The position numbers were made by a program, and so were the translations under genes. A model generated the notes under the pieces. It made no database searches, was not told where the DNA came from, and worked only from the letters and a program-made list of their open reading frames with translations. 64,000 nt of DNA from Candidatus Latescibacterota bacterium (GTDB lineage Bacteria; Latescibacterota; UBA2968; GCA-2709665): assembly GCA_963662665.2 (NCBI GenBank), contig CAXXJS010000030.1:64001-128000 (forward strand), written 5' to 3'. Positions 5,046 through 23,389 of this stretch are shown piece by piece (position 1 is the first letter of the stretch; each line of letters starts with the position of its first letter).

Positions 5046-5419
5046 TGGGTTTCCACTACACAGTTGGCCAAGATGTCAAAATCTGCTAGCGGCCACCAGG
5101 TATGATGTGACCGGTGTCCTGTCTGTAAAATGGAGCCTGCACCCGTTTCAAGTACTACTCGGCAAATTAAACGTTCGCGTAGGCTCGGGAGCATCAACGC
5201 CTTTTGGGAATGGCTTCGTTCAGCAAAAACAGATAGTCCCCTGGCCTGGCACTCGGAGATCTTGCCGAAGTCACGGTCCGGATTTTCAGCTCGCTGGGAT
5301 GCGAAGTCCTCCTCCGTCGGTGGGCTGGTTCGCACCAAGCGAAAAACCACTCGTGTTGCTGTAATGTCTTCTGCGACATCAGGTGGGCAACCTTCAGGTA
5401 ACTGCTCTCGGTAATTCAT
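5042..5419 (-). CDS. Small hypothetical protein with ADP-ribosyltransferase-like motif spacing
   Basis: 125 aa; LPEGCPP, VFRLV, CQARGLSVF, HHTWW; translationally coupled to 3912..5045. Confidence 0.6.
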   Translation of the reverse strand: MNYREQLPEGCPPDVAEDITATRVVFRLVRTSPPTEEDFASQRAENPDRDFGKISECQARGLSVFAERSHSQKALMLPSLRERLICRVVLETGAGSILQTGHRSHHTWWPLADFDILANCVVETQ

Positions 5420-5436
5420 AGGCTGACAGAGATTGC

Positions 5437-5805
5437 TTAGCTTGGTCGTTCAAGGCAATGCCGCCCTGGACGTCGAATTCTCCGGTCACCGAGGCAGTTT
5501 TGTGCGCGGAGCCGCGTTCTTTGATCAGAGGAAAAATATTGCTCGCGCTGGCTCGTAGCCAACAAGCCATCTGCGTCCATCCATTTGCACAGATCCGTCA
5601 AATCTTGTTCTCCCGTTCTGTCACCGTGGAACGCGTTGCGCCTAGCCCATTCCTTGGGCTGAGTCTCACGGATAAACGCAATTACGACGTCGGGCAAAAT
5701 CGCACGGTCGCGGTCGAAACCGCCTGCGGCGACGGTGAGGTAACCATTCGCCATTAGATGTGATTCAATGACCGTCTCAAAGGCAGCTTCAGTGGTTTCG
5801 CTCAC
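5437..5805 (-). pseudogene. hsdR: Truncated duplicate of the hsdR 5' end
   Basis: First ~84 codons (MSETTEAAFETVIESHL...DLCKWMDADGLLAT) nearly match HsdR residues 1-84, then similarity stops abruptly. Confidence 0.9.
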
Positions 5806-5865
5806 GTATCGACTCCCAAAAGGAACAGCGTCCAGTTGCGTCGTTATATCTTGAGTTTGGTTGTA

Positions 5866-7455
5866 TCAACCTTTGGACCTCTCACGTCTCCGAAGCCATT
5901 CGGAGTTATCTGTCGCTACGCGTGATAATCCTGATGCGAAGTGTTGTGCCACCCGCTGAGCGAAATCAGCTTTAAGATCTCCGATCCATTTGAATCTCAT
6001 TCCATCCGTGCACGTAAAGAAAAACTGTCCATCTGTGGCTTTCTCTGCAACTACGCACTTCTTAGAGTCATCCGGCGCAAACTTCGGCAGCAGCCATTGA
6101 GAAGGATTCGTGCATACGCTTCGACGTATATAGCCATCCTGGGCGTTTTTTACAACAACCTGAGTTTGTTTTTGCTGCGGGTTTATCAACGGTAACAAAG
6201 GGAAACACTCGTCACTTTGCAAGCGAACACTGTCACATCTCGGCCTCACACAGAGAAAGAATCCCCCTCCACCGTCGAGATTCTCTTGCTCAAGAGCAGT
6301 ACCCAATTGCAGTATGGGTGGCAGAGAATTGCTTACTGTCCGAAAGTTAAACATCCAGGCAAGCTGATGATCAAGGTCTTCCGATCCGTTTCCACTATTC
6401 GCAAATTTAGAGGATAGGGACCTGTAGTCTTGTCCGCTCAGCGAACTTAGATCTATGCCTTCCTTAAGTAGACGCAGAACATCGCTAAAGGATAGTTCCT
6501 TCTTCGGAAATTTAAATTTCATTTCTTGGCTGAAGTTCGAGTACAGCCAATCACTGACCGCATCGAGGCTCGCCGGATTCACTTCCATTATTGCGTCATC
6601 CATTATCGAATTCAACTCGCTATCAAGTAAGCTTACCATGTGCTGTTGAGAATCTTCCGGCGAGGAAAGACACGCACGATGTGCGAGGAACGCCGGATCA
6701 AGGTCTGCTGAAAAGGAATCGAGGACTCGATGTGCGTTCTCACGTACTGCTGCAAGTGATGTGAGCGCAATACTGGGCAGTAACCCCTTTGTCATATCTG
6801 CGAAGTCTTTAATGAGACGCTTCGCAATTTCACCCTCCGAAATTGCTCTATCCGTCAGCTCTGAGGGCAACAACGTCCCGGATTTCGCGTATATAACGAT
6901 ATGACAATGCCCATAGAAGAGATCGACACTCTGACCACACGGTTCAAAGTTCCAGCCTTGGTTACTCAACGCCCGCTTAATGCTCGTTTGTATTCCAATC
7001 AGGTCGTTTTCTCCGGTATAAATAGCGACCAGACGCAATCGGGCGACTTCGCTATTTTGCAGGAGGTTTTTCAACAATTTAAGGGTCCTCGCCCCATCGT
7101 CGTCGTGCAACTGCCAGTCCAATATCACAATGTCAGCCCGTCTCGCGGCTGGTAGTACACTAGCAACCAACGAATCATTTTCCCAAGGTGCCGTTACGGC
7201 GCAGATCAACCCTCGTTTGGCGAAGGTTTCTACTATCGTTCGTGCGTCCAAGCTGTGGGTAGTAGCCCTTCGTCTTGCATTTCTACCGTCAGGGACGGTT
7301 CCAACCGTGCGACGACTCGGAGTCTCCAAAGACTCGGTTGGCTTAGGCAAATCCGAAATCTGTGCTTCGTCATCCACGATTACGGCGGTAAGAAGAAATC
7401 GCTCTGCAATCTCAGCACATCGTTTCTCAAAATCGTCCATTTCAGTTGTTTCCAT
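5866..7455 (-). CDS. Response-receiver domain protein with an uncharacterised C-terminal domain
   Basis: VIVDDEA, ADIVILDWQL (phosphoacceptor Asp), IYTG; RBS AAGGAG before ATG 7455; overlaps the kinase stop. Confidence 0.8.
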   Translation of the reverse strand: METTEMDDFEKRCAEIAERFLLTAVIVDDEAQISDLPKPTESLETPSRRTVGTVPDGRNARRRATTHSLDARTIVETFAKRGLICAVTAPWENDSLVASVLPAARRADIVILDWQLHDDDGARTLKLLKNLLQNSEVARLRLVAIYTGENDLIGIQTSIKRALSNQGWNFEPCGQSVDLFYGHCHIVIYAKSGTLLPSELTDRAISEGEIAKRLIKDFADMTKGLLPSIALTSLAAVRENAHRVLDSFSADLDPAFLAHRACLSSPEDSQQHMVSLLDSELNSIMDDAIMEVNPASLDAVSDWLYSNFSQEMKFKFPKKELSFSDVLRLLKEGIDLSSLSGQDYRSLSSKFANSGNGSEDLDHQLAWMFNFRTVSNSLPPILQLGTALEQENLDGGGGFFLCVRPRCDSVRLQSDECFPLLPLINPQQKQTQVVVKNAQDGYIRRSVCTNPSQWLLPKFAPDDSKKCVVAEKATDGQFFFTCTDGMRFKWIGDLKADFAQRVAQHFASGLSRVATDNSEWLRRRERSKG

Positions 7456-10417
7456 TTGACTCCTTTGGTGCAACAGACACGGGGCCAATGGCAAAGGTAG
7501 CGCCTTTCATATCGTTGGTAGATCTCAAATACAAATCGTAACCTACGCGCCGAAGCACCTCTCTGGCAATGTGCAGCCCCATTCCACGTCCTCCCGGCTT
7601 TCTCGTAAACCCTAACTCAAATATCGCATCTCGATCACTTGGATTCACACCGGGCCCTGAATCTGAAACCAAAAATGTGCCATCTGTCGCGTCAAGGACG
7701 ATCCGGCGCTCGTCCGCAGGATTGTTCTGTGAGACCCAATAGACTGCGTTGTCGATGAGATTCACGAATACCGGATAGAAGGATGAAGGGAAACCATGAA
7801 TTCTCATTCTGGAAAATGCCTTGGTTTGTTGGAATTCTATTTCGTGACCTGTGAATCTCTCCTCGAAAAGGTCATTTAAGAAGGTGTAGATATCAGAACC
7901 AGGAATATCCACTGCTTTTCTCTGAAGCCTTCGATGTAGTGGTGTAAACAGCGTCAGGTATCCGTCCAAATGATCGAAGCTTGCACGAATGTCGTTGTAA
8001 AGTTTTTGGAGATCCTTATTGATGTCTGCCCATGCTCTTAGCCGACGAAGATTATTGCGAATGGAACGAATTGTTGAATTGAACTCGTGATTAATGACCT
8101 CAACTGCCATTCCGAGTTGGGCAAGTTGCAAGTCGCCCTCAACTTCCTCCTCGAGTGAGAGGTTTCGATGTTCGATCGCAACGAGTTGATCCAATACTGA
8201 TGTCTCACCGCTTAAGTCAATAGCTTGTAATTGATCAAAAAGCGATTCAAAAAAGCTAGTTTTGTCTTCCGCAACCGCCAGAATACGCGACTCTAGATCG
8301 ACGCGGAAATCAATTAAGTCCTCATTCGAAAGCCTTGAAACATCAATCCGTTGAAATTCGCCAACGACAGAGCGTAGCGCGGTTTCCACTTCGCTCAGGT
8401 GCGAACTAGCTAATCCTCGGACCTCCTCGGCTACCTTATTCGCTTCTTGTTTTACGCTGGTTCCACCCGCTCTCGTTTTCTTTATAGCATGTCTTGAAAG
8501 CTCATCGAGCGTCGTTTCGACCTGAAGTCTCCGGTCGATGCTCACGCGAGCTTTGTCGGCTTCATCTCTAACAACATCTGAGATCAAATCTCGAGTCGGA
8601 GAAAAGACTGTCTCCGAAAGTTCGGAAAATGCCAAATTGTAGTCATTCCACTCTCTTTGCATTGCCTTGCTAAGTGCTATCCTGGGTCGTGAAATTCTAT
8701 ATCGGGATTCGATCCTTCTAAGTTCCGTTTGGGCATCCTGCTCAACATGGATGAACTCTTGCGCCGCCCTGTGAGGATCCGATATGCGGCAAGCCATCTT
8801 GAGCCTCTGTGTAACATCCTCGCTCAACTTCAGGGCTTCATCATGAGGGTTTTTAGATGACACCTGTTCAAAAAACCAGACTAAATCTTTCGACAACTTC
8901 CGTTTCTTGATGGATACGAACCGTTCACGTCGTTTTCTATCCGAATCAACTTTTGAGAGTTCCTCCTTTTTCTTTTCAAACCTTTCGCTGTGGACACCTT
9001 CCTTTCGGAAAAAATCCGCAGCCATCTGCAAAAAAAAGTGCTTCAAAATGCTTTTGAATTGTCGATAAGCCTTGTTCTCTCGGAAACCTTCTCTACCAGC
9101 TTTTTCGTTGAGTTGCTGATTGTCTCGGTTGTTTATTTCTATAACACCGAACATTTTTCGATGTGAGAAATAGTAGTAGTAAGCGCTTTTTGTTCTATGG
9201 AGTTCTATATCAAGCCAATCATAATCCGTGTCTCCATACGGTAGTATCCTTATCCCATCCCGATAGATGTACAACCCGCCAATTTTACCCATTTTTTCGG
9301 CCATTCGAGCGTGGTCTTCAGCAGGAAGTGTTGAATGTCTACTCTCTCCCTCGATCGCGGCAAAGCTAATGAAAAAGGGACCGCAGGCGGTTGTGATCCC
9401 TCCCGCACCGGTCCAGGGAATAACGTGACTCTTTACTAATTCCCCATATATTAACACGTCTCCTTTGAATTGGCCGAATTCATCGAATTTTCCTGTGACT
9501 TGATGGTCCGCGTTTTGAAATTGCTCCGGCGTAAAGAACTCGCCTTCCTCGATAAGATCGTCTACGAGGTCGTCTGTCTTGTGGTCTCTGAATGCAGTGC
9601 GTATCACGGGTGACGAATGGTCCGGCGTCATTGTATTGGAGAATCCCAACAGTGCTTTCGTCAATGGTGTTGCCTTTTGGTCCTGAGGTTCTCCGTCGAT
9701 ATCCGTGGGTAGAAGGTCCGATGCAGGAAGAATGATGAAATGTGTACCTGTTCCGCCGCCGCTTAGTGTCGGATCACCGAGATAAGAATCAATGTCCTGA
9801 GGATCGACTCGAAACCCATCGAGTTCCTGTCGAAGACGGCTATAAAATCGTCCGCCAATCTTGTCTTTGAGATGCTCGTTATTTTGGGTGAATGCAGAAA
9901 CCATCTGATACACATCATGGCCTGACGGCAACTTGCCCCCGGGAAAGGTTCGAATGGGAACCTGGATATCTTCTAGATCGATTCCAGGACATTCAAAAAG
10001 GGTCCAGTTAACGAACGCCGCGGTGAGATCGGAGAGCGTACCGCTGTTTCGGGCGCGCGTCAACACAAGTACCTGCGGGCCGATGGTTGAAATTGCCAGG
10101 CGGCCGATGCCCTTTTCGCCCAGCATTGGTCGTTTTTTCTTGCCTGGATCGTGCGGTATCGGTTCCAACCCATCAGCATTGAGTTTGCTCTCGGTCCCGA
10201 TTGTAAGCCAACGGGTAGAAAAATCGTCCCGACTCATCCCAATCCCATCGTCACGTAATACGAACAGACCGTCACTGCGGTAGTAGTCGATCTCTACGCG
10301 GTCGGCATACGCATCGTGAGCATTCTTGAACAATTCACTGATTGCTGTTGGGATTCCCGCAATCTGTTGTCGTCCAAGCATGTCAAGCGTTCGAGCTCGT
10401 GTCTTAAATGTAGCCAT
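7442..10417 (-). CDS. GHKL (MORC/HSP90-like) ATPase fused to a C-terminal histidine kinase
   Basis: N-term ELFKNAHDA, DDGIGM, GEKGIGR; C-term H-box VINHEF, N-box NLIDNAVYW, DSGPGV, GFTRKPGGRGMGL. Confidence 0.88.
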   Translation of the reverse strand: MATFKTRARTLDMLGRQQIAGIPTAISELFKNAHDAYADRVEIDYYRSDGLFVLRDDGIGMSRDDFSTRWLTIGTESKLNADGLEPIPHDPGKKKRPMLGEKGIGRLAISTIGPQVLVLTRARNSGTLSDLTAAFVNWTLFECPGIDLEDIQVPIRTFPGGKLPSGHDVYQMVSAFTQNNEHLKDKIGGRFYSRLRQELDGFRVDPQDIDSYLGDPTLSGGGTGTHFIILPASDLLPTDIDGEPQDQKATPLTKALLGFSNTMTPDHSSPVIRTAFRDHKTDDLVDDLIEEGEFFTPEQFQNADHQVTGKFDEFGQFKGDVLIYGELVKSHVIPWTGAGGITTACGPFFISFAAIEGESRHSTLPAEDHARMAEKMGKIGGLYIYRDGIRILPYGDTDYDWLDIELHRTKSAYYYYFSHRKMFGVIEINNRDNQQLNEKAGREGFRENKAYRQFKSILKHFFLQMAADFFRKEGVHSERFEKKKEELSKVDSDRKRRERFVSIKKRKLSKDLVWFFEQVSSKNPHDEALKLSEDVTQRLKMACRISDPHRAAQEFIHVEQDAQTELRRIESRYRISRPRIALSKAMQREWNDYNLAFSELSETVFSPTRDLISDVVRDEADKARVSIDRRLQVETTLDELSRHAIKKTRAGGTSVKQEANKVAEEVRGLASSHLSEVETALRSVVGEFQRIDVSRLSNEDLIDFRVDLESRILAVAEDKTSFFESLFDQLQAIDLSGETSVLDQLVAIEHRNLSLEEEVEGDLQLAQLGMAVEVINHEFNSTIRSIRNNLRRLRAWADINKDLQKLYNDIRASFDHLDGYLTLFTPLHRRLQRKAVDIPGSDIYTFLNDLFEERFTGHEIEFQQTKAFSRMRIHGFPSSFYPVFVNLIDNAVYWVSQNNPADERRIVLDATDGTFLVSDSGPGVNPSDRDAIFELGFTRKPGGRGMGLHIAREVLRRVGYDLYLRSTNDMKGATFAIGPVSVAPKESNGNN

Positions 10418-10418
10418 C

Positions 10419-11513
10419 TTAGCGGAGTACTCCCACTTCCTTCAGATGTTTGTTGATTTGTCGTCCGATTGATGCTGCCAATTTAACTGGAACAGCATTG
10501 CCGATCTGTCGTGCCATCGAGGCGAGGCTTCCTTCGAATTTGAAGTCACGCGGAAAAGTCTGCAGACAGGCTGCTTCACGGATGCTGATAGCTCGATCCT
10601 GATCCGGGTGTCCGAAACGACCGTTGGAGTAACTGATGCATCTTGTCGTTAACGCCGTGGCCGGTCGGTCCCACGCCATACGGCCGTAGACGTCGCTATA
10701 TCCCGTTGTGTTATTGTGGCATTCTAGACGAAATCTTTCCGGCCAATCTTTACGGCCTCCGCCTTCCGGCGTCGCTCGAATACGCTCCAGATTTAGTTCT
10801 GACAGTCTCGCGGCACGATGATTTAGAAAGGTCTCATGTTCGTCGCCTGCCTCGATCGGTGGAAGATTTCCGATCCAATTCCTGACCGTTTCGTAACTGG
10901 GGTTGTCCGTTCCAGGCCCGTTTGTCTCCGATGGGAGTTCGATTGGACCGTGACGGCTTGCCAGAAGAACAAGGCGACAACGACACTGCGGGATTCCATA
11001 TTTCATGGCCCGCACTTTGCTGTACTTGATATAATCGTAGCCGGCTGAGCGAAGACTTTGAAGGAATTCTCCGAACGGCCGAGTACTCGATTTCTCTTCC
11101 TCAAGACCGGCCACATTCTCGATGAAGACGATGTCTGGTTTGCAGGCTTCGACAAACTCGGCGAACCGGGACAACAGTGTTTTCCGGTCGTCATCTTCTT
11201 TTTCGATTTGCTTCCTGTTATGCCTTGTGAATGGCTGGCATGGCGCGCATCCGCAAAATAACAAGGGGTTAGGTCTTTGCGCATCAACAATTGAACGAAC
11301 TTCAGAGATTGGTGTCTTGCGAATATTCTTGAATACGTAATGAGTCGAAGGGAAATTCGTTTGATAGGTACGTCGAGAGTCAGGATCGAAATCGAGCGCA
11401 AAGACGATCTCCATGCCAGCATCCCTGAACCCACAACTCGCCCCACCGCAACCCGAAAAAAAGTCGAATACTTTGACACTCACGCCATTACCTTTATATG
11501 GGAAATTAACCAT
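10419..11513 (-). CDS. dcm: DNA (cytosine-5)-methyltransferase
   Basis: FFSGCGG (motif I), APCQPF (catalytic PC), ENV, QCRCR, REAACLQTFP, QIGNAVP; start uncertain. Confidence 0.95.
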   Translation of the reverse strand: MVNFPYKGNGVSVKVFDFFSGCGGASCGFRDAGMEIVFALDFDPDSRRTYQTNFPSTHYVFKNIRKTPISEVRSIVDAQRPNPLLFCGCAPCQPFTRHNRKQIEKEDDDRKTLLSRFAEFVEACKPDIVFIENVAGLEEEKSSTRPFGEFLQSLRSAGYDYIKYSKVRAMKYGIPQCRCRLVLLASRHGPIELPSETNGPGTDNPSYETVRNWIGNLPPIEAGDEHETFLNHRAARLSELNLERIRATPEGGGRKDWPERFRLECHNNTTGYSDVYGRMAWDRPATALTTRCISYSNGRFGHPDQDRAISIREAACLQTFPRDFKFEGSLASMARQIGNAVPVKLAASIGRQINKHLKEVGVLR

Positions 11514-11916
11514 CAAAATACCGGCGCATCGACTGCTCAACGAGATCCCGATCCGCTGTCTCACATTCCCATATAATTAAGGACTTCCAACCTGCTTCCT
11601 CCAGAGCAACTACATTTCGCCGATCACGTTCGATATTTCGTGACAGTTTCTCGTCCCAGAAGATTCTGTTTGTTGTAGGACGTCTCGCCTTCGGACAGTC
11701 GTTGTGTCCGTGCCAGAAGCAGCCGTGGACAAAGATCACTTTCCGGTGCCGGGGAAATACCAGATCAGGCTTTCCAGGCAGACCATCGTCGTATAAACGA
11801 AAGCGATAGCCCAGATTATGGGCGATTTTTCGGATGCGATTTTCAGGCTTTGTGTCCTTGTCCCGGACTCGCCCCATAATTTCGCTTCGTTTCTTTTGGT
11901 TGTAAATATCTGCCAT
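11506..11916 (-). CDS. vsr: Very short patch repair endonuclease
   Basis: MADIY..RSEIM, DTKPE, LPGKPDLV, FVHGCFWHGH, IIWECE. Confidence 0.96.
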   Translation of the reverse strand: MADIYNQKKRSEIMGRVRDKDTKPENRIRKIAHNLGYRFRLYDDGLPGKPDLVFPRHRKVIFVHGCFWHGHNDCPKARRPTTNRIFWDEKLSRNIERDRRNVVALEEAGWKSLIIWECETADRDLVEQSMRRYFDG

Positions 11917-11934
11917 GACGTAAACGGAAAACTG

Positions 11935-11971
11935 ATTATATAGAATAGCGAAAATGTGTTGCCTCAGACAA
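11935..11971 (-). promoter_or_regulatory. Putative sigma70 promoter of the vsr-dcm-kinase-receiver cassette
   Basis: Minus strand TTGTCT-N18-TATTCT, immediately followed by TATAAT, just upstream of vsr. Confidence 0.35.
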
Positions 11972-12014
11972 GGCTGGGTCTCATTCGCATGATATTTTCG
12001 GTGATTGCCGCAGT

Positions 12015-13286
12015 TTAAGCGGATTCTGAGGAATTGATTGAGATCTGTCCGTTCACGGCAGCCGCGATAAGGGCAGAGCGGCGCTCCTTGAGGAGTGAAA
12101 TGGTGCGTTCTGTAGATTTGCGGACGCTATCGATTTCGGCAGTGTGACGAGCGATGTGGTCAACGACGCGCTTCTGCTCTTGATCGGGTGGTGTGAGGAG
12201 CGGCATCTCACTCAGGTTCGATGCTGAAATCGACGCCAAATTAGTAGACTGCTTAGCGCGGCTTTCAAAATACGCCTTGGCTACTTCACTTGTAGTATAG
12301 GTGTTAAGCCAGTCAGGCGATACCCGCCGTGGTCGCACTGCGAATACGTGGTTTTGATGTAAGCAAGGGTTGATCTGACCAGTCCAGATTGCTCCGCGCC
12401 CCAGCTTGTCCGCGTCTCCGCCTTCATTCATTAAAACGTCTCCGGCCCGAAGGTGGCACAGAGAGGCCTCTTTGTTCGGCACGGAAATAGACTTCACTTC
12501 GGTAAGATCAAAGTAGCCATCTTGAACATTCGCAACCCGCAGATAGGGAAACTCCCTCGTCGACTTGTTTCCAAAGCTTTTGCCCAAGGCAATCCCGGTC
12601 TGGACGGACGCTACGAATTTGAGACGAGTCACCTTCCAATGCGCCGGGATCTTGCCTAGCCAAGAGATGCCCGAGTGGCGGAACGGGACGTTCGGGTCGA
12701 GACCACGGGTCACGGCGCGGGTGATGAGCGCACGGCGCTTCTCGGCAACCAGGTCCAGCAGCCGTACGTTCTCCTTTACAAGCTCATCCAGCCTCGATGT
12801 CTCGTGGTCGAGATAGTCGGCGATGGCGCGTTGCTGATTCGGACCCGGGATCTGAATACGTAGATTAGCAAGGAACTCTCCGTTCACATGCGGAATACCC
12901 ATTCCAACTGTCTCGGCTTTAATCGTATCTTCCTGTGATTTACATGCCCAAAACAAAAACCTCGGATCAACAAATTTAGGAATGACGAGCGCGGCTGTCG
13001 ATGAGACAATACCCCGCTTAGCCCTTAGAAATTCCCCCGCATTTGATCCATCCCACAAGAGTAAGGTGTCGTTTTCGGAAGCCACAAGGGCATTGGGACC
13101 GAGACTGACGAGCGTCGGGTCATTAATCTCTCCGCGAAGAAACTCCATCGTGAGATAAGGTGCGACTTCGACATTGAGACCTGCCTGATCAACTGAAGTT
13201 GGTAAGTTTCCTTTGTGGACATCGGCCAGGTATCGAAATCGAACTTCCTTCCACATTTCCGTGGCTGTTTTCGTAGCGGCGTTCAC
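12015..13286 (-). CDS. hsdS: Type I R-M specificity subunit
   Basis: Two TRDs with conserved repeats (PGPNQQRAIADYLD...ALITRAVT; PPDQEQKRVV...ERRSALIAAAV); GTGA overlap with the hsdM stop. Confidence 0.93.
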   Translation of the reverse strand: MNAATKTATEMWKEVRFRYLADVHKGNLPTSVDQAGLNVEVAPYLTMEFLRGEINDPTLVSLGPNALVASENDTLLLWDGSNAGEFLRAKRGIVSSTAALVIPKFVDPRFLFWACKSQEDTIKAETVGMGIPHVNGEFLANLRIQIPGPNQQRAIADYLDHETSRLDELVKENVRLLDLVAEKRRALITRAVTRGLDPNVPFRHSGISWLGKIPAHWKVTRLKFVASVQTGIALGKSFGNKSTREFPYLRVANVQDGYFDLTEVKSISVPNKEASLCHLRAGDVLMNEGGDADKLGRGAIWTGQINPCLHQNHVFAVRPRRVSPDWLNTYTTSEVAKAYFESRAKQSTNLASISASNLSEMPLLTPPDQEQKRVVDHIARHTAEIDSVRKSTERTISLLKERRSALIAAAVNGQISINSSESA

Positions 13287-15268
13287 GCCGTCACCTCGCG
13301 AAGCAATCGGATGATCTTCTCTTCCGCCTTCTTCAGGTCCGCGTCGATTTCCTCCAGCGGTCGGGGTGGCGTGCATTTGTAGAAGTGCCGATTGAAGTTG
13401 ATCTCGTAGCCGACCTTGTCCTTTCCGCGGTCCATCCAGGCGTCGGGGACGTGAGGGCGGACCTCACGTTCGAAGTAGGCGTCGACGTCGTCTTTAAGCG
13501 GCACATTCTCGAAATCGCGTAGCGCGGTGTCAGGCTCGTATCCTTTCTCTCGGCCATCCTTCCTGACGGGCTCGCCGTCTGGATCTTTCACGGTGAAGAC
13601 GTCTCGGAAGAGCCTCTGTTCTACCTTCTTCCAGCGCGATTGGCGCTTATGCAGGAGAGCGCTGATATTTTCCCAGGTCGCGTTCCAGTCGCGCTGGGGC
13701 TCGCGCCCGAACACCTTATCTATGTCCTGGACGTCATCCAGCAAGTACGGACATGCATCCAGGAAACGCGCTTTGTCTTCAAAGGTCATCTGATAACGCA
13801 GGCGCAGAGGGCGCTCCACGGTGACACGGGAATAGCCGAAGTCATCGTTGTCGAAAATCTTTGAACGCTCGTCCTCCTGGAAGCGGCCATACAGTTGCAC
13901 GATCTCCTCAACATGCTCTGCGGTTAAATGCCGGCGCTTGTCGCCCAGACTTCGCCTGTTGTCTTCGCTACCGCCCGCCATCCACATATCGCGGGCGTCG
14001 ACCAGCTGAATCCGTCCTTTCCGGTGATCTTTTTTGCGGTTGGTGACAATCCAGATATACGTGGCGATGCCTGTATTGTAGAACATCTGCTCTGGTAAGG
14101 CAATGATGGCTTCGAGCCAATCGTTTTCGATAATCCACTTGCGAATGTCGCTCTCGCCGGAACCGGCGCCGCCGGTGAAAAGCGGGGAACCACTGAACAC
14201 AATGGCCAGACGCGAGCCGTGCTGGTGCTTTGCCGGCTGAACTGGTTCAAACTTATGTACCATGTGCTGCAGGAATAACATAGATCCATCGTTTACGCGG
14301 GGGAGTCCTGCGCCGAAACGGCCCGCGAAACCAAGCTTTTCGTGCTCATTGCGGACGTCGTTGCGTTGTTTTTTCCAGTCCACGCCGAAGGGGGGATTGG
14401 TAAGAAAATAATCAAAGGTGTCGTCCTCGAATTGGTCCTCTGTAAGGCTGTCGCCGTATCGGACACTATCACCGACACCAATGTGGTCGACCTGCTTCAT
14501 CAGCATGTCTGAGGCAGCAGTGGCAAAGGCGCGCTGGTTATAGTCCTGTCCATAAACGAAAAGACGCGCAACATTGTTATGCTCTCGCAGGTAGTTCTGC
14601 GCTTCGGCCAACATGCCACCGGTTCCGCAAGCGGGATCGAGAAGCTTGCGCACTGCACCGGGCGTAGCGAGGAGCTCATCGTCGCTAATGAATAGGATGT
14701 TTACCATCAGCCGGATGACGTCCCGTGGCGTGAAGTGGTCGCCCGCGGTCTCGTTGGCCAATTCATTGAATCGACGAATCAGATTCTCGAAAATAAGTCC
14801 CATCTGGTCGTTTGGGACACGCTCCGGATGGAGATCCACGTCGCAGAACTTCGAGACAACGAGATAGAGGATGTTGGACTCCTGCATTTTCCCGATTTCT
14901 GTCTCAAATTCGAAGTATTCGAAGATTTCGCGAACGTTCTTTGAAAAGCCATGGATGTAGCTGACAAGGTGTTGGGCGACGTGGTCCGGATCGCCTTTGA
15001 GCTTATCGAAGTCGAGGGGTGAGTGGTTATGGAAACGCTGGTCAGCAGCGCTGTTCAACTTGCGTTCGAGCGCACGACCTTCAAACTTGCCTCGGGAGCG
15101 TTCGTACTCAGCAAGCACGCTGGACTTGGTCGGTGAGAGCACGCAGTCAAATCGTCGAAGTACGGTCATGGGCAACATCACACGTTCGTACTGTGGAGGA
15201 CGGTACGGCCCACGTAGCAAGTCGGCGATTTGCCAGATCAGATTCGCGAAGTAGCTGTGGTCAGGCAT
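13283..15268 (-). CDS. hsdM: Type I R-M N6-adenine methyltransferase
   Basis: IWQIADLLRG, AGDHFTPRDV, DPACGTGGML, NPPFG, GYEINFNRHFY. Confidence 0.97.
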   Translation of the reverse strand: MPDHSYFANLIWQIADLLRGPYRPPQYERVMLPMTVLRRFDCVLSPTKSSVLAEYERSRGKFEGRALERKLNSAADQRFHNHSPLDFDKLKGDPDHVAQHLVSYIHGFSKNVREIFEYFEFETEIGKMQESNILYLVVSKFCDVDLHPERVPNDQMGLIFENLIRRFNELANETAGDHFTPRDVIRLMVNILFISDDELLATPGAVRKLLDPACGTGGMLAEAQNYLREHNNVARLFVYGQDYNQRAFATAASDMLMKQVDHIGVGDSVRYGDSLTEDQFEDDTFDYFLTNPPFGVDWKKQRNDVRNEHEKLGFAGRFGAGLPRVNDGSMLFLQHMVHKFEPVQPAKHQHGSRLAIVFSGSPLFTGGAGSGESDIRKWIIENDWLEAIIALPEQMFYNTGIATYIWIVTNRKKDHRKGRIQLVDARDMWMAGGSEDNRRSLGDKRRHLTAEHVEEIVQLYGRFQEDERSKIFDNDDFGYSRVTVERPLRLRYQMTFEDKARFLDACPYLLDDVQDIDKVFGREPQRDWNATWENISALLHKRQSRWKKVEQRLFRDVFTVKDPDGEPVRKDGREKGYEPDTALRDFENVPLKDDVDAYFEREVRPHVPDAWMDRGKDKVGYEINFNRHFYKCTPPRPLEEIDADLKKAEEKIIRLLREVTA

Positions 15269-15420
15269 GGCTGACTATTCTCAACCCGAAGAGTGCGAGA
15301 AAGACAACGTCGGCAATCGATTGCTAAATGTCCGAACGTTTTGTTGGCCGTAATACCTGTAGGCTGTCGTGGCGCAGTGCTCTCTCCGTCAGTGACTGGC
15401 TACACCAGGTTATCGTACAT

Positions 15421-15457
15421 ATTTTCGCCGTATCGCCCAAATTTTCGCCGTATCGCC
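15421..15457. repeat. 17-bp direct repeat (ATTTTCGCCGTATCGCC x2, 20-bp period) upstream of hsdM
   Basis: Identical copies at 15421-15437 and 15441-15457. Confidence 0.8.
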
Positions 15458-15569
15458 GCCAATTTCTTGGGTAGCCAAGTCGTAATCGTCCGTGTGGGCC
15501 ACTTGACGGATCTCCAATAGAGTTCGGTCTCAGTCTATTGAAGTAAATGGGACGAATACGTCAACCCAT

Positions 15570-16868
15570 TCATAAACCTATCTTCAAGCCTGCCGCAGTT
15601 GCTTTCTTTACCGCAGAGCAGAACCTCTCGTAATCCCGTAGGGTTATCGGCCTATAGTGTGCCACTGCATTGCGGAGTTGTCGCGATTGACGCACCAGTG
15701 GAAGCCATCGCTGTTCCACCTGTATATTGGGACACTTCTGCAGCAGATATTCCAGGTGTCCCCATTGACAGGCAAAGGGCGTCTCTCTCACTTCCTGGCA
15801 TTCTATTACTGTATCCGGCTCCTGCCATTTGTAAGGCCAATTCAATCCGTACGAGTGGTTAAGGTGGGTACATAAGCCCAATCGAATTTCGTCAATTTCC
15901 GCCAAAAGAAACCCTGCTTGTCCTCGCCACAATCGATGATCCAACGTTTCCCTTTGATCCAATAGAGCCAAGACTGCACTATGGCGTTCCAGCCCATATT
16001 CCGGCGTCCAATGAACCATTCCCCGAGCCCAAATCTTATACAATGTATTTGGTAACGCCCAATCCTCTTGCCAAAGTGTGGAATTTCGGGGATGGCTATG
16101 TAGAGGCCAATACTCCAATTCCGTTTGATCCCAGCCACGTCTCTGACCATAGGCCCGCAGTAGGTCCGCTAGTTCGGCGTTATCGCGATATTCCTGAGAC
16201 CAAAGAAAATCCGCCAATCCTATATCAGAGCCCGCAATGGCTGGAATAGTGTGCTCTTTCCATCGGCTTGAGGGACCAGTATCCTGTTCGGATGCCAGTC
16301 GACACAAGAGTCGCATCTCCAATGTCGTGGGGATGCCTTTCCAAGGACGGATAGACAGGAATACATTCGTTTGGGGAAGCAGGCACGTCACTTGCGACGC
16401 TTGCGTTAGCAAACACAATGCCGGGGGGGTCTCTGAGCCACCTTCAGCGGTGGAGTCCCTACCTTGACATACCTGAGCCCACTGCACCATGAAATTTAGC
16501 CAATGCTCTCGATCTTCTTCAGTCAATTCATCGAAACCATCGAGAAACAAAATCTCAGGTAAGTCTGCTTGATTCAGGAGATTCTCTACTGTACGAGGCG
16601 CGTTGGAGGTACCCCAATCGACTTCGAGAATCAGACCTAATGCTCCAGCTGGCGTTTGGGCATCCAATTGGGATATCAAAACATCATGGATTTGTAACTG
16701 CCATTGTCCGAGTCCATCCCATAATTCAGATCGGAGCAGGCTTGATTCCACGCCTTCGGGAAACAAGGCCAAAACACTGCGGCCGTTCCGCAAGTCGTCC
16801 AGTATCAGGTCTAGCAAACGCCGAGCAGTTGGCATCTGCATTACGAATCTGGTCAGTTCCAAGCTCAT
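15570..16868 (-). CDS. Degenerate P-loop-like protein with C-terminal HEPN-type RxxxxH motif
   Basis: 432 aa; LRNGRSVLALFPEG (decayed Walker A-like), ILFLDGFDE, C-terminal RQLRNAVAH; ATGA overlap with the upstream NTPase. Confidence 0.6.
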   Translation of the reverse strand: MSLELTRFVMQMPTARRLLDLILDDLRNGRSVLALFPEGVESSLLRSELWDGLGQWQLQIHDVLISQLDAQTPAGALGLILEVDWGTSNAPRTVENLLNQADLPEILFLDGFDELTEEDREHWLNFMVQWAQVCQGRDSTAEGGSETPPALCLLTQASQVTCLLPQTNVFLSIRPWKGIPTTLEMRLLCRLASEQDTGPSSRWKEHTIPAIAGSDIGLADFLWSQEYRDNAELADLLRAYGQRRGWDQTELEYWPLHSHPRNSTLWQEDWALPNTLYKIWARGMVHWTPEYGLERHSAVLALLDQRETLDHRLWRGQAGFLLAEIDEIRLGLCTHLNHSYGLNWPYKWQEPDTVIECQEVRETPFACQWGHLEYLLQKCPNIQVEQRWLPLVRQSRQLRNAVAHYRPITLRDYERFCSAVKKATAAGLKIGL

Positions 16869-19545
16869 AGATGTCCGATTATTCGGCCCAGGACTGGTTC
16901 AACACGGCACTCTCCATTTCTTATATCTAGGCAACCCAACCGACTCAAGAACTCCACAACCGACATACAGTCCTCGTGGGAAAGGTCGGGTGTTCCTTCA
17001 ACCAAATCGCGCAATGTATCTAAATCTTCGTACGAGAATCTTCCAAATTCCACTAAAGTCCGTAACACCGGTAACGACTCATCCTGAGAAACCAATCCAG
17101 TCTGCTGTAACAATTCGTCACCTAACTCTGATGAGGGACGGTCCAAATCCTCGATTAATGCGTTTGCGAACGAGCGGGGATCGTCATGGTCTTGGCACCG
17201 ACGCAAAAGATCATCCAGCAAGAAAGACCATCCGCCGGTGGCTTTCATCACCATCTGGTAGACCTCGGGCGAATCTAGCTTACCCGCCTGGCTTAGTCGC
17301 TGTCTTATCCCCACTTCGTCCCAGCGGCGGAGGTAGATGGGGTCAACCTTATCTTCCAGACCGGTTCGCCGGTCAGGGGGCACCTTTAGCCACGTCCAAG
17401 CAGCCTCTGGCTTAAGCAGAAAAACCACCTGAAGAGGCCGTCTACGCCTCTGGTTAAAGTCTCTGCACATTTCAGATACGTTCCAAACGCATCGCGCCAT
17501 TTCCCCACCGGTTCCGCGAAGCCGGCCATAGGTTAATGATTGCTCGACCCCTCGTTGCTTTCGGGCGTGGGAATTCAACCAGGCACAGGTTCTGTCGGCT
17601 TGGATCAATTCTTGGGCAGGGATCTTAATGCCTCCCATACGGATTAAAGCGCGGTCCAACACGTCAAACCCTAATGCTTGCGAGCCGAAGACTAAACTCA
17701 CGCCGGACCGCCCTGTTTGTTGCAGACGGCCTTCCTCCACCAGCGTCAACGGACTGTATCTTCGGCCTCGGTCGTCTAATAGTCGGTGATGACTATCAGG
17801 TTGAAACTGAGTCGGCTTAGGTTTATCCAATAGCTCCAGCAGTCGGTCTTCGATGTCCTCCTCGGTACCCATGAGACGGACTAAATTGGGACTGCGTAGC
17901 AAGTATTGATTTTCATCCAAGTTGTGTACCAATATGCCCAAGCCGACCATTTCTCCCAGCAATCCCCTCAATGCTTCAGTGTCGACCTGATCGAAACCCT
18001 GAGGCCACCATTCTCGCGCCAGGCGGAGAAGCTCGTTCACACTGAATGAACGGACATAGCTGTCTCGTTTCTCTTTTTGCACATAAATCATGGCCCACGC
18101 GATGCACTGATACCGTGAATCCAGTGCCAGAGTCCAATCGAGCCTTTCCCGAATGACCTGTCGAGCTTGAGACGATCGATATACCGCTTCGACATCCTCC
18201 GATAGTATCTTGTAAGGCGGTCCAGTTGTGGACCTTTTGGCTTGCAGCCGACGTACGAGTTCATGACAGAAATACTGTATTAGACCCGGATGGTAGTTGG
18301 TGTATGAAAGGACTTTGAGCACCGTGGTCTCATCAACGAACCGATATCCCAGCGTTTCCAATGGCTCTCGAACCAATTGCCGGGCAGACGGGGCTTCGAG
18401 TGGTCCCACTAGCAAGTTTTCCCCAAAATGCGCCAGCGGCTGGTTGGGGATATCGTTGAACCGCTGCACGTTATGTAGACCGGCAAAGACCACCTTGAAA
18501 CGGGATTGCGTATTCTGCATAAGGGATCTGAGTCTTTCGACGACTTGAAAGCTATTCTGAGCATCTGCACCCAATAAGGAATCGGCTTCATCAAACAGGA
18601 CGAGAACACGCCGTTGCGGAGATTCATCCATTGCGTTCTGCATGTGTTTGATGATATTGTCAGGCTGGTTCGCCGTTATGCTGTCCCTAATAAGTGAGTG
18701 TTTCTTAAAGCCATCGCGCAACTTGATCCATAACTGGTCGGGCTGTTCGCCCGCCAGGGCATCCCCCAATAGCTTGATGTCCTCGACCCAAGCAAATCGC
18801 TCCTGATCTGGCTGGTGAAATGTGCGCTCCACTTGGCGCAATAGAGCGGACTTGCCCAACTGTCTCCCACCGAATACGATGCAGCTACCGGCGTTTTGTA
18901 GCTGACGGACCATCCTGTCGCGGCCGTAGTACATTTCGGGCGGTACATTTCCGGCCTGGAACGGTGTATAGGGATTGAGAGCAGCGTAGGGTAAGCTACA
19001 ACGCAGGAATGCTGGAAGGCGGGTATCGTCAAACTTGGCCAAAAATACAAGTAGGACTTCATCTAGAACAACGAGAGCCAATTCCCGTTCTCCAGCGCGG
19101 GTGGCTATGTCGCGTCGCCGCCGCTCAGTTAATCGCCCGAGAAAAAAGACGATGACCGTCTTGGTATCCAGTCCTATGTCACGCAAGAACGCTCCGATCG
19201 AGGCCGCCCCGGGCCGTTCCCACAGACATACTACATTGTAGCAGCCATTGGCTTGCGAGCCCAACTGAGGGATCGGTCGTGCGAGATCGCTGGCCGACGC
19301 ATCTACCTCGCAGTGGAGCCAATCCCGGCCGCGACTCTTCACACTGACGGTCGACGCATTCCCCGGTAGATGAAAACCAAGATATGCCAACAAGACCGGG
19401 ACATGCCGATCGGCAACTGTTGGTTGGTCCTGATGGCGTTTGAGTAGGTGCCAGGATTTAAGTGCCCTAGCGGCTTCATCTCGGCGGGTTTTGGGTAACT
19501 CACCGAACGCCACCTTACCCCAAGTTTTGCCTTTCTCAATCACAC
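16865..19545 (-). pseudogene. 3' part of a large STAND/AAA-like NTPase gene interrupted by IS630
   Basis: NPY...YYGR, Walker A GGRQLGKS, Walker B VLVLFDEAD, YTNYHPGLIQ; joins 20770..23389 in frame when the IS is removed. Confidence 0.85.
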
Positions 19546-19547
19546 TA

Positions 19548-20769
19548 GTACCTATTGACTTCTAAGACTGGGCGTGCTTATAGTTCGATGTCTCCCCTGA
19601 AGACGAAGGAGCCATCGGCATGCCGAAGAAATACGTCGTACGTCTGAGTCCCGAAGAACGGGAACGGCTGCAGGATCTGGTAAGCAAAGGCAAGACGCAA
19701 GCGTACCGAATCAGGCACGCGCATGTGCTTCTCAAGGCCGATGCAGAGGGTCCGGCCTGGCTGGATCGGCAGATCACGGAGGCCTTTTCGTGCAATCGGT
19801 CTACGGTTGAGGGCATCCGGAAGCGTTTTGTGTTGGAGGGCCTGGATTCGGCCCTTGAGCGAAAGAAGCGCGCCCATCCTCCCACCGAAAGAAAGCTGGA
19901 TGGTGCTAAGGAAGCCCGATTGATCGCGTTGGCTTGCAGTGAACCTCCAACGGGACGTAAGCGGTGGACGCTGAAGCTTTTGGCCGATGAGCTCGTAGCC
20001 CTGGAGATCGTCGATAGCATCTCATACCGGACGGTGCAGCGAACGCTTAAAAAAACAAACTTAGGCCTCACCTGAGAACGTGCTGGGTGATTCCGCCCAA
20101 GCAAAACGCCGCGTTTGTCGCCGCGATGGAGGATATCCTGGATGTCTATCAGCGGCCGTACGACGCCCTGAGGCCCGTTGTCAATATGGACGAACACCCG
20201 GTTCAGTTGGTCAAGGAGACGCGTGTTCCGGTCACTACACGTCCGGGCAAACCTGAACGCTACGACTACGAGTATGAACGTAACGGAACCGCCGTGAACT
20301 TCATGTTCACTGAACCGCTTTCGTGCTGGCGCAAGGTCCGTGTAAGACAACGCAAGACCGCACTGGACTGGGCCCAGGAGATCAAGGAGCTTCTGGATAC
20401 GGACTACCGTGAAGCCGAAACCGTCGTCCTGGTGTGTGATAACCTCAACACGCACACGCCCGCGGCACTCTACGAGGCGTTCTCACCCGAAGAAGCTCGC
20501 CGTCTGGCCAGGCGTCTCGAAATCCACTACACGCCCAAACACGGGAGTTGGCTCAACATCGCCGAGATCGAACTGAGTGTCTTGAGCAACCAATGCTTGA
20601 AGCAGCGCATCCCCGATATCGATTCACTCAAAGAGCAGACTTCCGCTTGGACGAATGATCGCAACAACAATAGCAAGGCCGTCCATTGGCGGTTCACGAC
20701 CGACGATGCTCGCATCAAACTGAGAAAGCTGTATCCAGACTACGCCGTGCTTTAGCCGTCAAAGGGTAC
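19548..20769 (+). mobile_element. IS630-family insertion sequence (1222 bp)
   Basis: Imperfect terminal IRs GTACCTATTGACTTCTAAG / GTACCCTTTGACGGCTAAAG; TA duplicated at 19546-47 and 20770-71 within CTAG. Confidence 0.93.
19620..20755 (+). CDS. IS630 transposase (orfA HTH 19620..20075 plus orfB DDE, joined by a -1 frameshift)
   Basis: A7 tract at 20049-20055; the -1 frame reads KNKLRPHLRTCWVIPP; DDE motifs MDE, CDNLNTH, WLNIAEIE. Confidence 0.9.
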
Positions 20770-23389
20770 TAGCCAATTGATTGACATTCCCCAAACTAGT
20801 AAGCCCCGATTCGATAACAGGACTAGCAACTTGGAACTCCGTTAAGATGTCACGCTCGTACGGTGGGGCAAACCACGCGCTCTCCCATTCTCTCTCGCCT
20901 TGGAGGACTTCGCGTAGGTGGGCTAAGCCTTCGTCTACGACTCTGGTGTCGCTCTGTTGAAAAGCTTTATCGAAAAATACCTCTACGGTTCTTAGCTGCT
21001 CAACTTGGATCTTTTGCTCTAGCACTTGCCGAATTTGTGCCCATTGACTCTCCAACTCTTGCAATCGGTCTGCGCGCTTTTGTTTCAATTGCTTCTCAAT
21101 ATCATCTAGCCGTCGGAACAGGGGCCCAAAGCGCAAGGGCTCTTCAATAGCCGCCGTTTCCATCGCGGCACTCATATTGGTACGTTCTTTTTCAACCAGC
21201 AGCCCGTCCACCATACCCTGTTCAATTTCGCTCCGCACTTTGGCGACCCCTTCCAATAAAGCCGTCCGGGATCCTTTGAGAGACTCTTCGTTTCGATCCA
21301 CAAATAACCTGCGCTCCTCGTCGTCCTTTAACGCGCTCTGTAATACATCGGTGAAGCGAAAATCCTGTCCTTCAATACGCATGCTACAGGCCGTACTTAA
21401 TTCACGTTCCTCAGCCAAAGATTGGCGCAAGAACGTGGCGATCTCGGCTTTATTATCCTCTCCAGGATAGCCGTCGTCGTCAAGGGACACTTCAGGGAGC
21501 CATAATAGGCGTCGTGCCAACGCCTGCTGCAACGAGATGCTCTCTCGCCGCATCCACATGTGGGGTTCTTTCATATTTGATTGTTCCTCTAACCCTAACA
21601 TACCTACTACCTGGTCAAAAGCCCGACGAAGAACATAACCACAGGCGGCTTCCGGCTGGGCTTGATCATCTCGTTGCATTAGGTCCAGTTCGGATTTGAT
21701 TTCCGGCCGGACGGTGTGTATATGATCATGCAACTCCTTCACTTGATCCGTCCACCAGTCACCCTTGTTTCTAACGAACTCTTGCTGCTCAATTAAGGAA
21801 CACCAGTTGTCCGCCAATGTTACTGCTTCTTCGACACTTCGTACTAATTGATCTCGGAAAACCCCGGACAGTGGCTTGGACGGTCGAGAAGATGCCAACT
21901 CTTGGTCGATCTGGTGGATGCGGTCTACAATCTGGGCTCGCCTTTGGAAACGCAAAATGCGCTCCCGGACCTGAACTATTTGATCTACTTGGTTATCCTT
22001 TACGGGAGTGAGAATGAAACTTAAATCGCCCTCTCGCTCAACTAGATACCGCAATATGTGAGTCGCCCTCGGGATTATCAGTCTCCGGTTTTGATTATTT
22101 TCCAAGAGCCGGCCAGCGTCTTTTGCAGTCCCGTCGATTTTTTCATTGATAATTGCCTGGTTCTCGACTCCTCGTAGATCGTCGTTTCGGAGAGGAAAGC
22201 CCGCTCTGGCAAAAACCCGGATAGCGTCGGAGAGTGCACCAAAGGCGGGATTGACTTCATCTCTTTGAGGAAGCCACCCGACGAGCCCGGCATGCGGGGC
22301 AATCAAGCTGGGACGAAGTGCCGCAGCCAATCCCAGTAGTTTTTCCGTAGTAGTTTGAGGTGCCCAATCCGAAGCAATTTCCAAAATGTCGCGGACTAAA
22401 CTGTCAGCATCGTCTTCCAACCAACGTGAACCCTGAAGCACGGTGAGCAGTTCAGGCGCAACAGGTACGTCACGACCGGATGCTCTTAGAGAACGAACCA
22501 GCCAATAAGCTCCGGCCGAATCACCTTCAGCTAATAGGCTCCAACTCAATGATTCCCAGTTTTCATCGGAGTCGTCTTTTTGTAAAAGTGCCGCTACATC
22601 CTGAACGGAGCGCAACGTTGGTGGCTTTTTTTCGGGGGGCTGGGGTGCGGACGTGGTCGGCTGGGTAGGCTTTGGTTCGGACTCTTCTCGCTTGTCTAAA
22701 CGTTCGGCTTCGTCCTTTTGCCCTGTGGAACTGGTTTCCCTCTTGGATTCTTCTTCGGATGGATGAGTTTCTTTTTTTTCCTCAAGCTGTTCGTCAGAAT
22801 CTGGGCGGTCGCCAGAAGTACCTTTTCCGGGCTTAGGGGGTTCCGTGCCGGGGTCGTCGTCGTCTTCAACTTCCTCATCTTGAGTCTGTTCCGGCTCCGG
22901 TTTGGTCGCCGCAAACCCCTGGTCGAGTTGCTTCGCCAGTGAATTTATCCGATCTTCCGTGTCGTTCAAGTCCGTCCGATGCTTGCGGGTTTCCTGGAAG
23001 TTTTCAGGCGATTGCTGCTTTAACAAGCGAAGCCCATTTAACTGCTCCAGCAGACTTCCCACCGTTTTCGCACGCTCCGAAACTTCGTCAGTAGGGCAAT
23101 CAGCCGCAAGCCAGTTGGCTATGTCCAAGTTCTCGAATTCAAAAAACACGATCTCGCTGGCGTAGTCCGCTCGCAATTGGTCCAACGCCCGTTGAAGATG
23201 CATGCGTCCGGCCTTCTTCCGCTCGTCGGACTTCCGATCAGCAATGAGCCGTACCTGTTCGACGAATCCGCTGACCTGATCTGATTCCCATTCCGAAGCA
23301 TCGGAAGGCCACTCTCGCAGTTCCTCAATAACATTGGCCCATCGCGTAACCTTCAGGCTCTCGTCATTGTGAATTTTGGCATCTCCCAT
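20770..23389 (-). pseudogene. 5' part of the IS-interrupted large NTPase gene (helical, with an acidic/Pro-rich linker)
   Basis: 874 codons ending NQLAS at the IS junction; continues VIEKGK after the IS. Confidence 0.82.

Follow-up and report, generated by a model that had tools for sequence, protein, structure and literature searches.

The 64,000-nucleotide (nt) stretch of a Candidatus Latescibacterota bacterium genome analysed here (the window, meaning its whole length) carries on its minus strand two overlapping genes. They encode a predicted STAND-type NTPase of 1766 amino acids (aa) and a 432-aa partner, in which a predicted inactive STAND module is joined to a probable HEPN domain. We lean towards reading this pair as a two-gene counter-invader (anti-phage) defence module, in which the HEPN domain would serve as the effector and the ATPase as the switch. 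The pair is a variant of a kind of system that has been predicted computationally and not a categorically new system. In this genome, the large gene is, to judge from its interrupted sequence, inactivated by a recent IS630-type insertion.

The large gene is split into a 5′ open reading frame (ORF) of 876 aa (20759-23389, minus strand) and a 3′ ORF of 892 aa (16865-19543, minus strand), whose first codon is GTG. Removal of the element restores the reading frame across one TA, with NQLAS running directly into VIEKGKTW. The 5′ piece then contributes residues 1-874 (20770..23389) and the 3′ piece residues 875-1766 (16865..19543) of the whole protein, the latter placed by homologue alignment. When compared with the intact homologue P0097 (1766 aa), the N piece aligned with residues 1-876 at 62% identity and the C piece with residues 875-1766 at 79% identity. 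Dozens of intact large-protein homologues of 1756-1768 aa were found, and the nearest relative, locus L001, possesses matching flanking genes around an uninterrupted insertion site. Both findings led us to reject the possibility that the 876-aa and 892-aa ORFs are two separate genes. The first-pass annotation, made from the letters alone, had proposed that element removal fuses both ORFs into one protein of 1766 aa (874 + 892), and this length is borne out by the end-to-end collinearity with P0097 together with the many intact homologues. The partner gene (15570-16868, minus strand) follows directly, its ATG overlapping the TGA of the large gene, so that the ATGA stop/start coupling noticed earlier is indeed present in the sequence.

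In the large protein, the C piece contains a STAND/ORC-Cdc6-type ATPase with a lid and a winged-helix-like region (C-piece residues ~185-575; 17819..18991, minus strand), as delimited by Pfam matches and motifs. Two Pfam families match the C piece above their cut-offs, namely AAA_22 (42.4 bits, cut-off 27, E 1.1e-10) and nSTAND1 (30.3 bits, cut-off 27.1, E 4.3e-7, residues 185-447). The Walker A motif reads GGRQLGKS (18848-18871, minus strand) and the Walker B DEAD motif LFDEAD (18581-18592, minus strand). Among 64 aligned relatives, residues G225, G226, R227, Q228, G230, K231, D318, E319 and D321 are invariant, while R361 of the large protein is kept in at least 90% of the rows. The proposed STAND-like NTPase is thus supported by both profile matches and invariant Walker residues, and the large protein is classified by its sequence as a STAND-type NTPase with intact Walker A and B motifs. 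The Pfam matches of 25 diverse full-length homologues, counted at E<=1 and with 25 of 42 families shown, point in the same direction: AAA_22 and AAA_16 were each found in 25/25, ATPase_2 in 16, nSTAND6 in 8, TniB in 7 (best E 3.6e-5), iSTAND in 2 and nSTAND1 in 1.

Conservation of the large protein peaks from an alpha/beta region through the end of this first ATPase module. The alpha/beta region itself (C-piece residues ~40-185; 18989..19426, minus strand) is strongly conserved; no Pfam or PDB relative was found for it, and hhalign showed no relation to either ATPase module (probability <2%). The N-terminal half consists of a moderately conserved head (~1-160), a variable linker (~160-260), which is the least conserved stretch and in which the acidic/Pro-rich character described before is visible, and a conserved helical region (~270-874). 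The 5′ piece encoding these 874 residues matched no Pfam family and had no PDB sequence relative, and a sequence-profile search of the PDB with the whole large protein (alignment A4) returned nothing below E 0.3. A second NTPase-like region, decayed, had also been suggested in the large protein. C-piece residues ~585-892 (16868..17791, minus strand) probably form such a degenerate AAA+/STAND-like module, but this stands as a lead only: hhalign against the active module aligned the Walker A regions with an E-value of 0.004 and a probability of 8%, and the nearest Atlas clusters by language-model features were AAA_22/NACHT/nSTAND (scores 0.90-0.92).

To examine the partner, an AlphaFold2 model was built on 81 relatives (mean predicted local distance difference test score, pLDDT, of 90). 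Foldseek with this model retrieved ORC2 (1w5s_B) with an E-value of 1.5e-5. In the VIA comparison, the N-terminal portion (15999..16868, minus strand; residues 1-~307) matched Cdc6 (1fnn_B; Z 10.9, root-mean-square deviation 7.3, 250 aligned), the archaeal ATPase PAB2304 (2qen_A; Z 10.6), Avs5 (9jap_A; Z 10.0), TnsC (Z 9.9), Avs3 (Z 8.6) and BrxC chains (Z 8.3-8.4), and MuB was also among the matches. The position of the P-loop reads FPEGVESS and GK[ST] is absent from the sequence. The model therefore assigns the N-terminal ~300 residues to a predicted STAND module of ORC/Cdc6/STAND fold, which is considered inactive because FPEGVESS stands in place of the P-loop; this agrees with the decayed P-loop NTPase anticipated at the partner N-terminus. 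No match to iSTAND (PF19995) was detected in a Pfam scan of 81 partners, hhalign with the partner N-domain revealed no relationship to either of the two modules in the large protein (probability <2%), and no PADLOC, NCBIfam or Pfam model matched the partner of the window above cut-off.

The C-terminal part of the partner (residues ~296-432; 15573..15983, minus strand) is a probable Swt1-like HEPN domain by motif, Atlas, Pfam and VIA comparison. The RNAVAH motif that had been pointed out at 15657-15674 corresponds to partner residues 399-404 by arithmetic on the ORF coordinates. Across the alignments, which comprise 31, 81 and 86 relatives, its R399 and H404 never vary, and N400 is kept in at least 90% of the 86 rows, at identities down to 17%; the RxxxxH signature is thus conserved as proposed. 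A crude regular expression, R[ND]xxxH, recovered the motif in 56/61 distinct metagenome partners, the remaining five giving another string or none. Despite these misses, R399 and H404 are invariant in the 86-row alignment (A6), which includes 56 metagenome partners. A second conserved element, HRLWRGQ (residues 311-317) and R329, is nearly or fully invariant and lies in the first long helix of the C-domain, with R312, R315 and R329 conserved in the 86-row alignment. To our knowledge, this helix is not known from the Swt1-like HEPN family.

HEPN_Swt1 (PF18731) was the commonest Pfam match among the partners, with sub-threshold matches in 22 of 81 members (best E 0.0018), while the next family reached 3/81. 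The nearest Atlas cluster of the C-domain is 'Swt1-like HEPN' (score 0.92, 184 shared features). For structural comparison, a separate model was made of the 148 residues at the C-terminus (pLDDT 90). In the VIA-wide search, ranks 1, 2, 3 and 6 were taken by SsR10, a complex of a CRISPR Cas nuclease with crRNA (9fcv, matched in its C-terminal residues 1000-1125), Csm6 and the HEPN protein AF_0298 (Z 6.6-5.8), and the top 50 also contained AbiA, HI0074, the sacsin HEPN domain, Cas13bt3, SeCsm6 and SO_3166. About 10 of these 50 were taken as HEPN structures (Z 4.9-6.6). Only two entry titles name HEPN; for SsR10 and for the regions matched in 9fcv, Csm6, AbiA, HI0074, Cas13bt3 and SO_3166, we assume a HEPN identity. 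A sequence-profile search of the PDB with the C-domain (alignment A3) gave only chance matches to fluorescent proteins (E >=0.18). The HEPN-like character of the domain suggested previously is favoured by the Pfam and Atlas results, with which the VIA matches agree although their Z-scores are not decisive on their own, and the C-domain is predicted to be probably a Swt1-like HEPN ribonuclease (RNase) domain. Outside the pair, the HEPN domain is met in locus L019 (3826-6226), where a 254-aa protein matches only the HEPN part of the partner (residues 251-422, 39% identity); its gene adjoins an IrrE/M78 peptidase (RmrA/CapP-like) gene and a DUF4411 gene.

Judged by gene order and codon overlap, the two genes form a near-obligate, translationally coupled unit. 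A genome search with the partner yielded 19 loci, from Latescibacterota, Binatia, Chloroflexota, Acidobacteriota, Entotheonella, Myxococcota and Spirochaetia, and the large gene lies directly upstream of the partner in 18 of them, the nineteenth being a partial, HEPN-only match. A metagenome search with the large protein returned more than 456 relatives. Of the best 80 loci, 67 had at least 1300 nt of room downstream, and a full partner follows the large gene directly in 66 of these 67, so that the synteny of the gene pair is conserved. The start and stop codons overlap by 4 nt in 48/79 distinct pairs; for the remaining pairs, the distance from the stop to the closest in-frame start is at most 38 nt. 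With the partner profile, 2557 representatives (clustered at 50% identity) were retrieved, 858 of them at E<=1e-30, and the best 150 matches are all 343-460 aa long. The sole partner-less metagenome locus, L062 (7627-15942), encodes a short variant of 768 aa with just two ATPase-type modules; its neighbours are genes for a QatA-like KAP NTPase and for a HATPase_c_3 protein, and a type II helicase-like gene lies farther out.

The distribution of the pair is patchy, with occurrence in 13/168 genomes of the phylum and 3/15 of the genus. In related Latescibacterota (L002-L006), it is inserted at varying points of one sugar ABC-transporter operon, between the ATPase and permease genes in L002 and L005 and between the binding-protein and ATPase genes in L003 and L004, whereas in an Entotheonella genome (L013) it sits between def and fmt. 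Because of these differing sites, the pair is regarded from its genomic positions as a typical mobile cassette. Relatives were found on 25 plasmid records. Two distant ones differ in arrangement. On an Azospirillum plasmid (L101, 1978-13424), the gene of a 2403-aa relative annotated as 'RNaseH domain-containing' overlaps by 4 nt the downstream gene of a 557-aa 'AAA family ATPase', which contains a HEPN-like stretch (E 8e-12 against the C-domain profile). On a Brasilonema plasmid (L100, 4810-15069), a 2289-aa relative is followed by a helicase and has no partner. In addition, a 395-aa AAA_16/ATPase_2/nSTAND1 protein is encoded beside the pair in L003 (13168-14355) and L006 (2511-3698).

The genes surrounding the pair were compared with a control. 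For the metagenome loci, the two nearest ORFs per side were collected from 53 loci on short contigs, leaving 119 ORFs after removal of 25 duplicates or ORFs shorter than 118 aa; 119 ORFs taken from eight mid-contig stretches (20 kb each) of the genome under study served as the control. PADLOC models matched 33/119 neighbour ORFs versus 10/119 control ORFs at E<=1e-10 (Fisher p 1.6e-4), and 23/119 versus 5/119 at E<=1e-30 (Fisher p 4e-4). The neighbour matches include SoFic, type I REase, Cas3, QatA, DrmD, DruF, PglX, PglZ, HmaB and PDC-M16A/B. Among the genome loci, 6/18 have PADLOC matches in the neighbourhood, the defence neighbours being type I restriction-modification (R-M), BrxA, PDC-M34B, a Dsr2-like protein, HerA/SWIM and DruE. 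Defence genes are therefore commoner in the surroundings of the pair than among the control ORFs. Since the control stems from a single genome and generic ATPases match in both sets, we take the enrichment as suggestive and not as exact.

Based on these observations, we propose how the pair may work as a self-contained, abortive-infection-type module. The 1766-aa protein would be the sensor and switch. The 432-aa partner would be the effector arm and dock, by way of its inactive STAND module, onto the ATPase modules of the larger chain. Sensing of an invader cue by the large protein could trigger an ATP-dependent assembly which brings partner molecules together. The HEPN domains of these partners would then pair into an active RNase, much as the first-pass annotation had suggested with its dimerisation in trans, and the resulting RNA cleavage would stop the growth of the infected cell. 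The binding between the two proteins, the RNase activity, the trigger and the defence phenotype are all inferred here. If the pair is indeed anti-phage, it would represent systems that supply their effector on a chain of its own, by means of a dead ATPase module, as well as a test case for the function of inactive STAND domains, a question shared with BrxB in BREX. The family is large, spread over many phyla and unannotated, and no PADLOC, NCBIfam or solved-structure relative was matched.

The first-pass annotation had described the pair as undescribed, which does not hold in that form. In the study by Kaur et al. (eLife 2021, PMC8195603), nSTAND2, another STAND family, is presented as a mobile two-gene operon with a STAND module in both proteins, one of which is eroded and fused to a variable effector, mostly GT4 or a HEPN RNase. 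The paper thus contains an analogous pair of an active STAND protein and an inactive STAND-HEPN/GT4 protein, computationally predicted to form a hetero-multimeric ring, and provides a precedent for the logic of our pair. As in the present pair, two STAND genes are adjacent, one of them inactive and HEPN-fused, and in the section of the supplement alignment compared by eye, the inactive module is N-terminal (~1-320), as in our partner. A similar succession of elements and a GRS-hLhLhP-[EQ]G stretch common to one subgroup were also seen there by eye, observations to which we attach no weight. The differences are as follows. The nSTAND2 model PF20702 gave no match in the present genome at E<=10; it was absent from the Pfam scans of the 81 partners and the window proteins, and is not among the 25 of 42 families shown for the 25 large homologues. 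Furthermore, the present active module is AAA_22/nSTAND1-like and lies ~1060 residues into a 1766-aa protein, which seems to hold a second decayed module, and the effector of the present pair is always HEPN and never GT4 (67 loci). As far as family models go, the pair is set apart from nSTAND2 by PF20702 alone, and the two may share members. The nSTAND2 literature that we found relevant to STAND proteins is computational only, and no experiment on such a pair was found in the literature searched, although subscription journals and PDF supplements may hold more.

Among other known systems, Avs/AVAST proteins share with the pair a STAND ATPase switch, long non-catalytic regions and an effector expected to be activated by oligomerisation, and Avs5 and Avs3 were among the structure matches of the partner N-domain (Z 10.0 and 8.6, as above). 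However, Avs carries effector, ATPase and sensor on a single chain, while the present effector is on a separate second chain, joined to the inactive STAND module, and the Avs models in PADLOC did not match the pair. Compared with the Swt1-like HEPN family (PF18731), the partner has the RNxxxH motif in invariant form and shows this family as its commonest Pfam match and nearest Atlas cluster, but the partner matches are sub-threshold and the protein of the window gave none. With PADLOC 2.0.0, no model matched the large protein or the partner, which confirms for the window proteins that no PADLOC system covers the pair. The marginal PADLOC/NCBIfam matches of the three ORF products were BrxC (E 0.028, 10.4 bits), mad8 (0.03), PDC-S01 (0.038) and DS41_1 (0.074), and a Sll1717 ATPase match (E 0.0019) was far below the cut-off.

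Several points weigh against the proposed defence module. Regarding the effector, all HEPN_Swt1 matches of the relatives lie below the gathering score of PF18731, and the partner of the window had no HEPN_Swt1 match at E<=5 and no Pfam match whatever. Foldseek with the C-domain folded alone returned nothing at E<=0.001, and the VIA Z-scores of 5-6.6 are within the range which, according to the warning of the tool, can arise by chance for helical bundles. Partner binding and RNA cleavage by the HEPN domain are predictions of the model, and no role is assigned to the conserved alpha/beta domain or the 870-residue N-terminal part. With respect to genomic context, the neighbour enrichment depends on a control from one genome and on neighbours from short contigs, and within the window's own clade (L002-L008), the genes around most loci are housekeeping and not defence genes. 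A search of 50,697 phage records returned no relative; therefore, no prophage link is apparent. Finally, one subclade of the pair is embedded in BREX-like or Hma-like operons, for which a role linked to DNA modification is a better fit than stand-alone abortive infection.

This last point leads to the main rival explanation, in which the pair supplies the ATPase core to a BREX-like or R-M-like system linked to DNA modification. Here, it would be the functional counterpart of BrxC/PglY together with the inactive-STAND protein BrxB, or else of the DUF499 ATPase that carries a fused HEPN domain in Hma systems, and would act with a methyltransferase and a nuclease or phosphatase (type I R-M in the window), with HEPN as a back-up effector. 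A joint operon is seen in L096/L095 (two loci overlapping with 99.98% identity over 4343 nt), in the order kinase (STK_OB), PglX-like methylase, large gene, partner, PglZ-like gene and 349-aa gene. In L093, the pair is followed by an SNF2 helicase, a PglZ-like gene (53% identical to that of L095) and DUF1848, and in L078, L076 and L080, DUF4276 and a DUF1156/HmaB-like methylase precede the pair and a PLD-SNF2 helicase follows. BrxA lies directly upstream of the pair in L009. By these gene orders, one divergent subclade of the pair stands where BREX-like and Hma-like operons would have BrxC/PglY or the DUF499 ATPase.

The BREX diversity survey of 2026 (PMC12839542) describes ORC/Cdc6-type ATPases paired with inactive STAND modules, as in BrxC/PglY plus BrxB, and HEPN fused to DUF499 ATPases in Hma-type systems, where HEPN is attached to the ATPase arm in a way comparable to our partner. 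The BrxC chains among the structural matches of the partner and the hsdM and hsdS genes located 300 nt downstream on the same strand, in the window and in L001, speak for the same explanation. On the other hand, such contexts make up roughly 8 of ~71 loci and are divergent (26-33% identity), while most pairs stand alone among unrelated genes, without PglX, PglZ or a helicase; PglX and PglZ are also absent from the window. The large proteins matched no BrxC, PglY or HmaC model, even in the BREX-like contexts, and DUF499 is not listed among the Pfam matches of the 25 large homologues (25 of 42 families shown). In addition, the present partner keeps a helical lid region and has its HEPN domain at the C-terminus, unlike the BREX and Hma proteins. 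The R-M adjacency, which had been noted as directly beside the pair, holds for the window and its closest relative L001, but most relatives are flanked by other genes; moreover, adjacency alone is weak evidence because defence genes cluster anyway. Taken together, we regard a BREX-like or R-M-like core as distinctly unlikely for the pair.

A broader version of our proposal would accommodate both kinds of context: the pair could be a portable immune core, acting either as a stand-alone, RNase-based switch for abortive infection or plugged into the BrxC/PglY(+BrxB) or DUF499 position of BREX-like and Hma-like operons. We consider this unlikely, though worth stating. If true, it would provide an evolutionary and mechanistic bridge from NLR/Avs-type sensing to BREX-type self/non-self systems, and the three AAA+ modules, one live and two dead on two chains, would form an ORC-like mixed ring. 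In any case, the BREX-like and Hma-like contexts of the subclade offer a route to study the exchange of ORC/Cdc6-type ATPases among immune systems.

Alternatively, the pair may be a selfish addiction or mobility module, that is, a toxin-antitoxin-like HEPN toxin restrained by the large protein, or a TniB/TnsC/MuB-like ATPase pair which serves an unrecognised mobile element. HEPN domains are common toxins, TniB was matched in 7/25 large homologues, the partner resembles TnsC and MuB in the structure comparison, and the cassette is found inside conserved operons and on plasmids. However, in the loci examined, the pair is not accompanied by a transposase, an integrase or repeats, and an antitoxin of 1766 aa is without precedent. 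Since the insertional knock-out of the large gene is tolerated with the partner intact, a simple toxin held by the large protein is disfavoured, unless the partner is not expressed alone. This explanation therefore seems improbable to us. A housekeeping or regulatory RNA-processing complex without a conflict role, which would draw on the function of Swt1-type HEPN domains in eukaryotic RNA surveillance and on the many housekeeping flanks of the pair, is very improbable, given that the pair is restricted to the 13/168 phylum and 3/15 genus genomes, varies in genomic position, has neighbours enriched for defence genes and is dispensable in this genome, where it is broken by the insertion sequence (IS).

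In the window itself, the pair sits next to a restriction system. Downstream of the pair follow, all on the minus strand, hsdM (13283-15268) and hsdS (12015-13376) of a type I R-M system, a C5 cytosine methylase (10419-11564), a 991-aa HATPase_c_3/HEF_HK/HATPase_c protein (7442-10417), a Response_reg_2 protein (5866-7494), a DUF6575 protein (3912-5045) and hsdR (246-3782), the product of which carries an additional C-terminal Peptidase_S24-like domain (residues 1041-1170). The type I R-M system is thereby split (246-15268), with four genes between hsdM/hsdS and hsdR. A promoter and terminator scan of the 300-nt gap ahead of hsdM found nothing. The G+C content of the island is lower than that of the upstream housekeeping genes.

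The element interrupting the large gene is an IS630-type IS of 1222 bp (19548..20769, plus strand). It has imperfect terminal inverted repeats and is flanked by TA at 19546-19547 and 20770-20771; a TA target duplication is a mark of IS630/Tc1-mariner elements. The transposase ORF (20087-20755, plus strand) matched DDE_3 (PF13358) in the Pfam scan with an E-value of 2.4e-22. A second transposase ORF lies upstream in a different frame (19620-20075), and an A7 run between the two ORFs (20048-20054) may be a programmed frameshift site. With its DDE_3 transposase, terminal inverted repeats and TA duplication, the element has the defining features of the IS630 family. Four full-length copies with ~100% identity are present in the 4.86-Mb, 66-contig assembly, the other three at C40:119569-120790, C10:236035-237256 and C5:20537-21758, and because of this, the element is judged from its copies to be active or recently active in this genome. 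The practical message for this genome is thus that the system is broken by a currently active IS. Elsewhere in the assembly (L103, C40:204787-224786), a homologue of the candidate-defence protein PDC-S06 (12103-19223) is found in three minus-strand pieces (12103-12687, 15956-16531 and 18360-19223) with plus-strand ORFs in between, and may be another insertion-broken gene.

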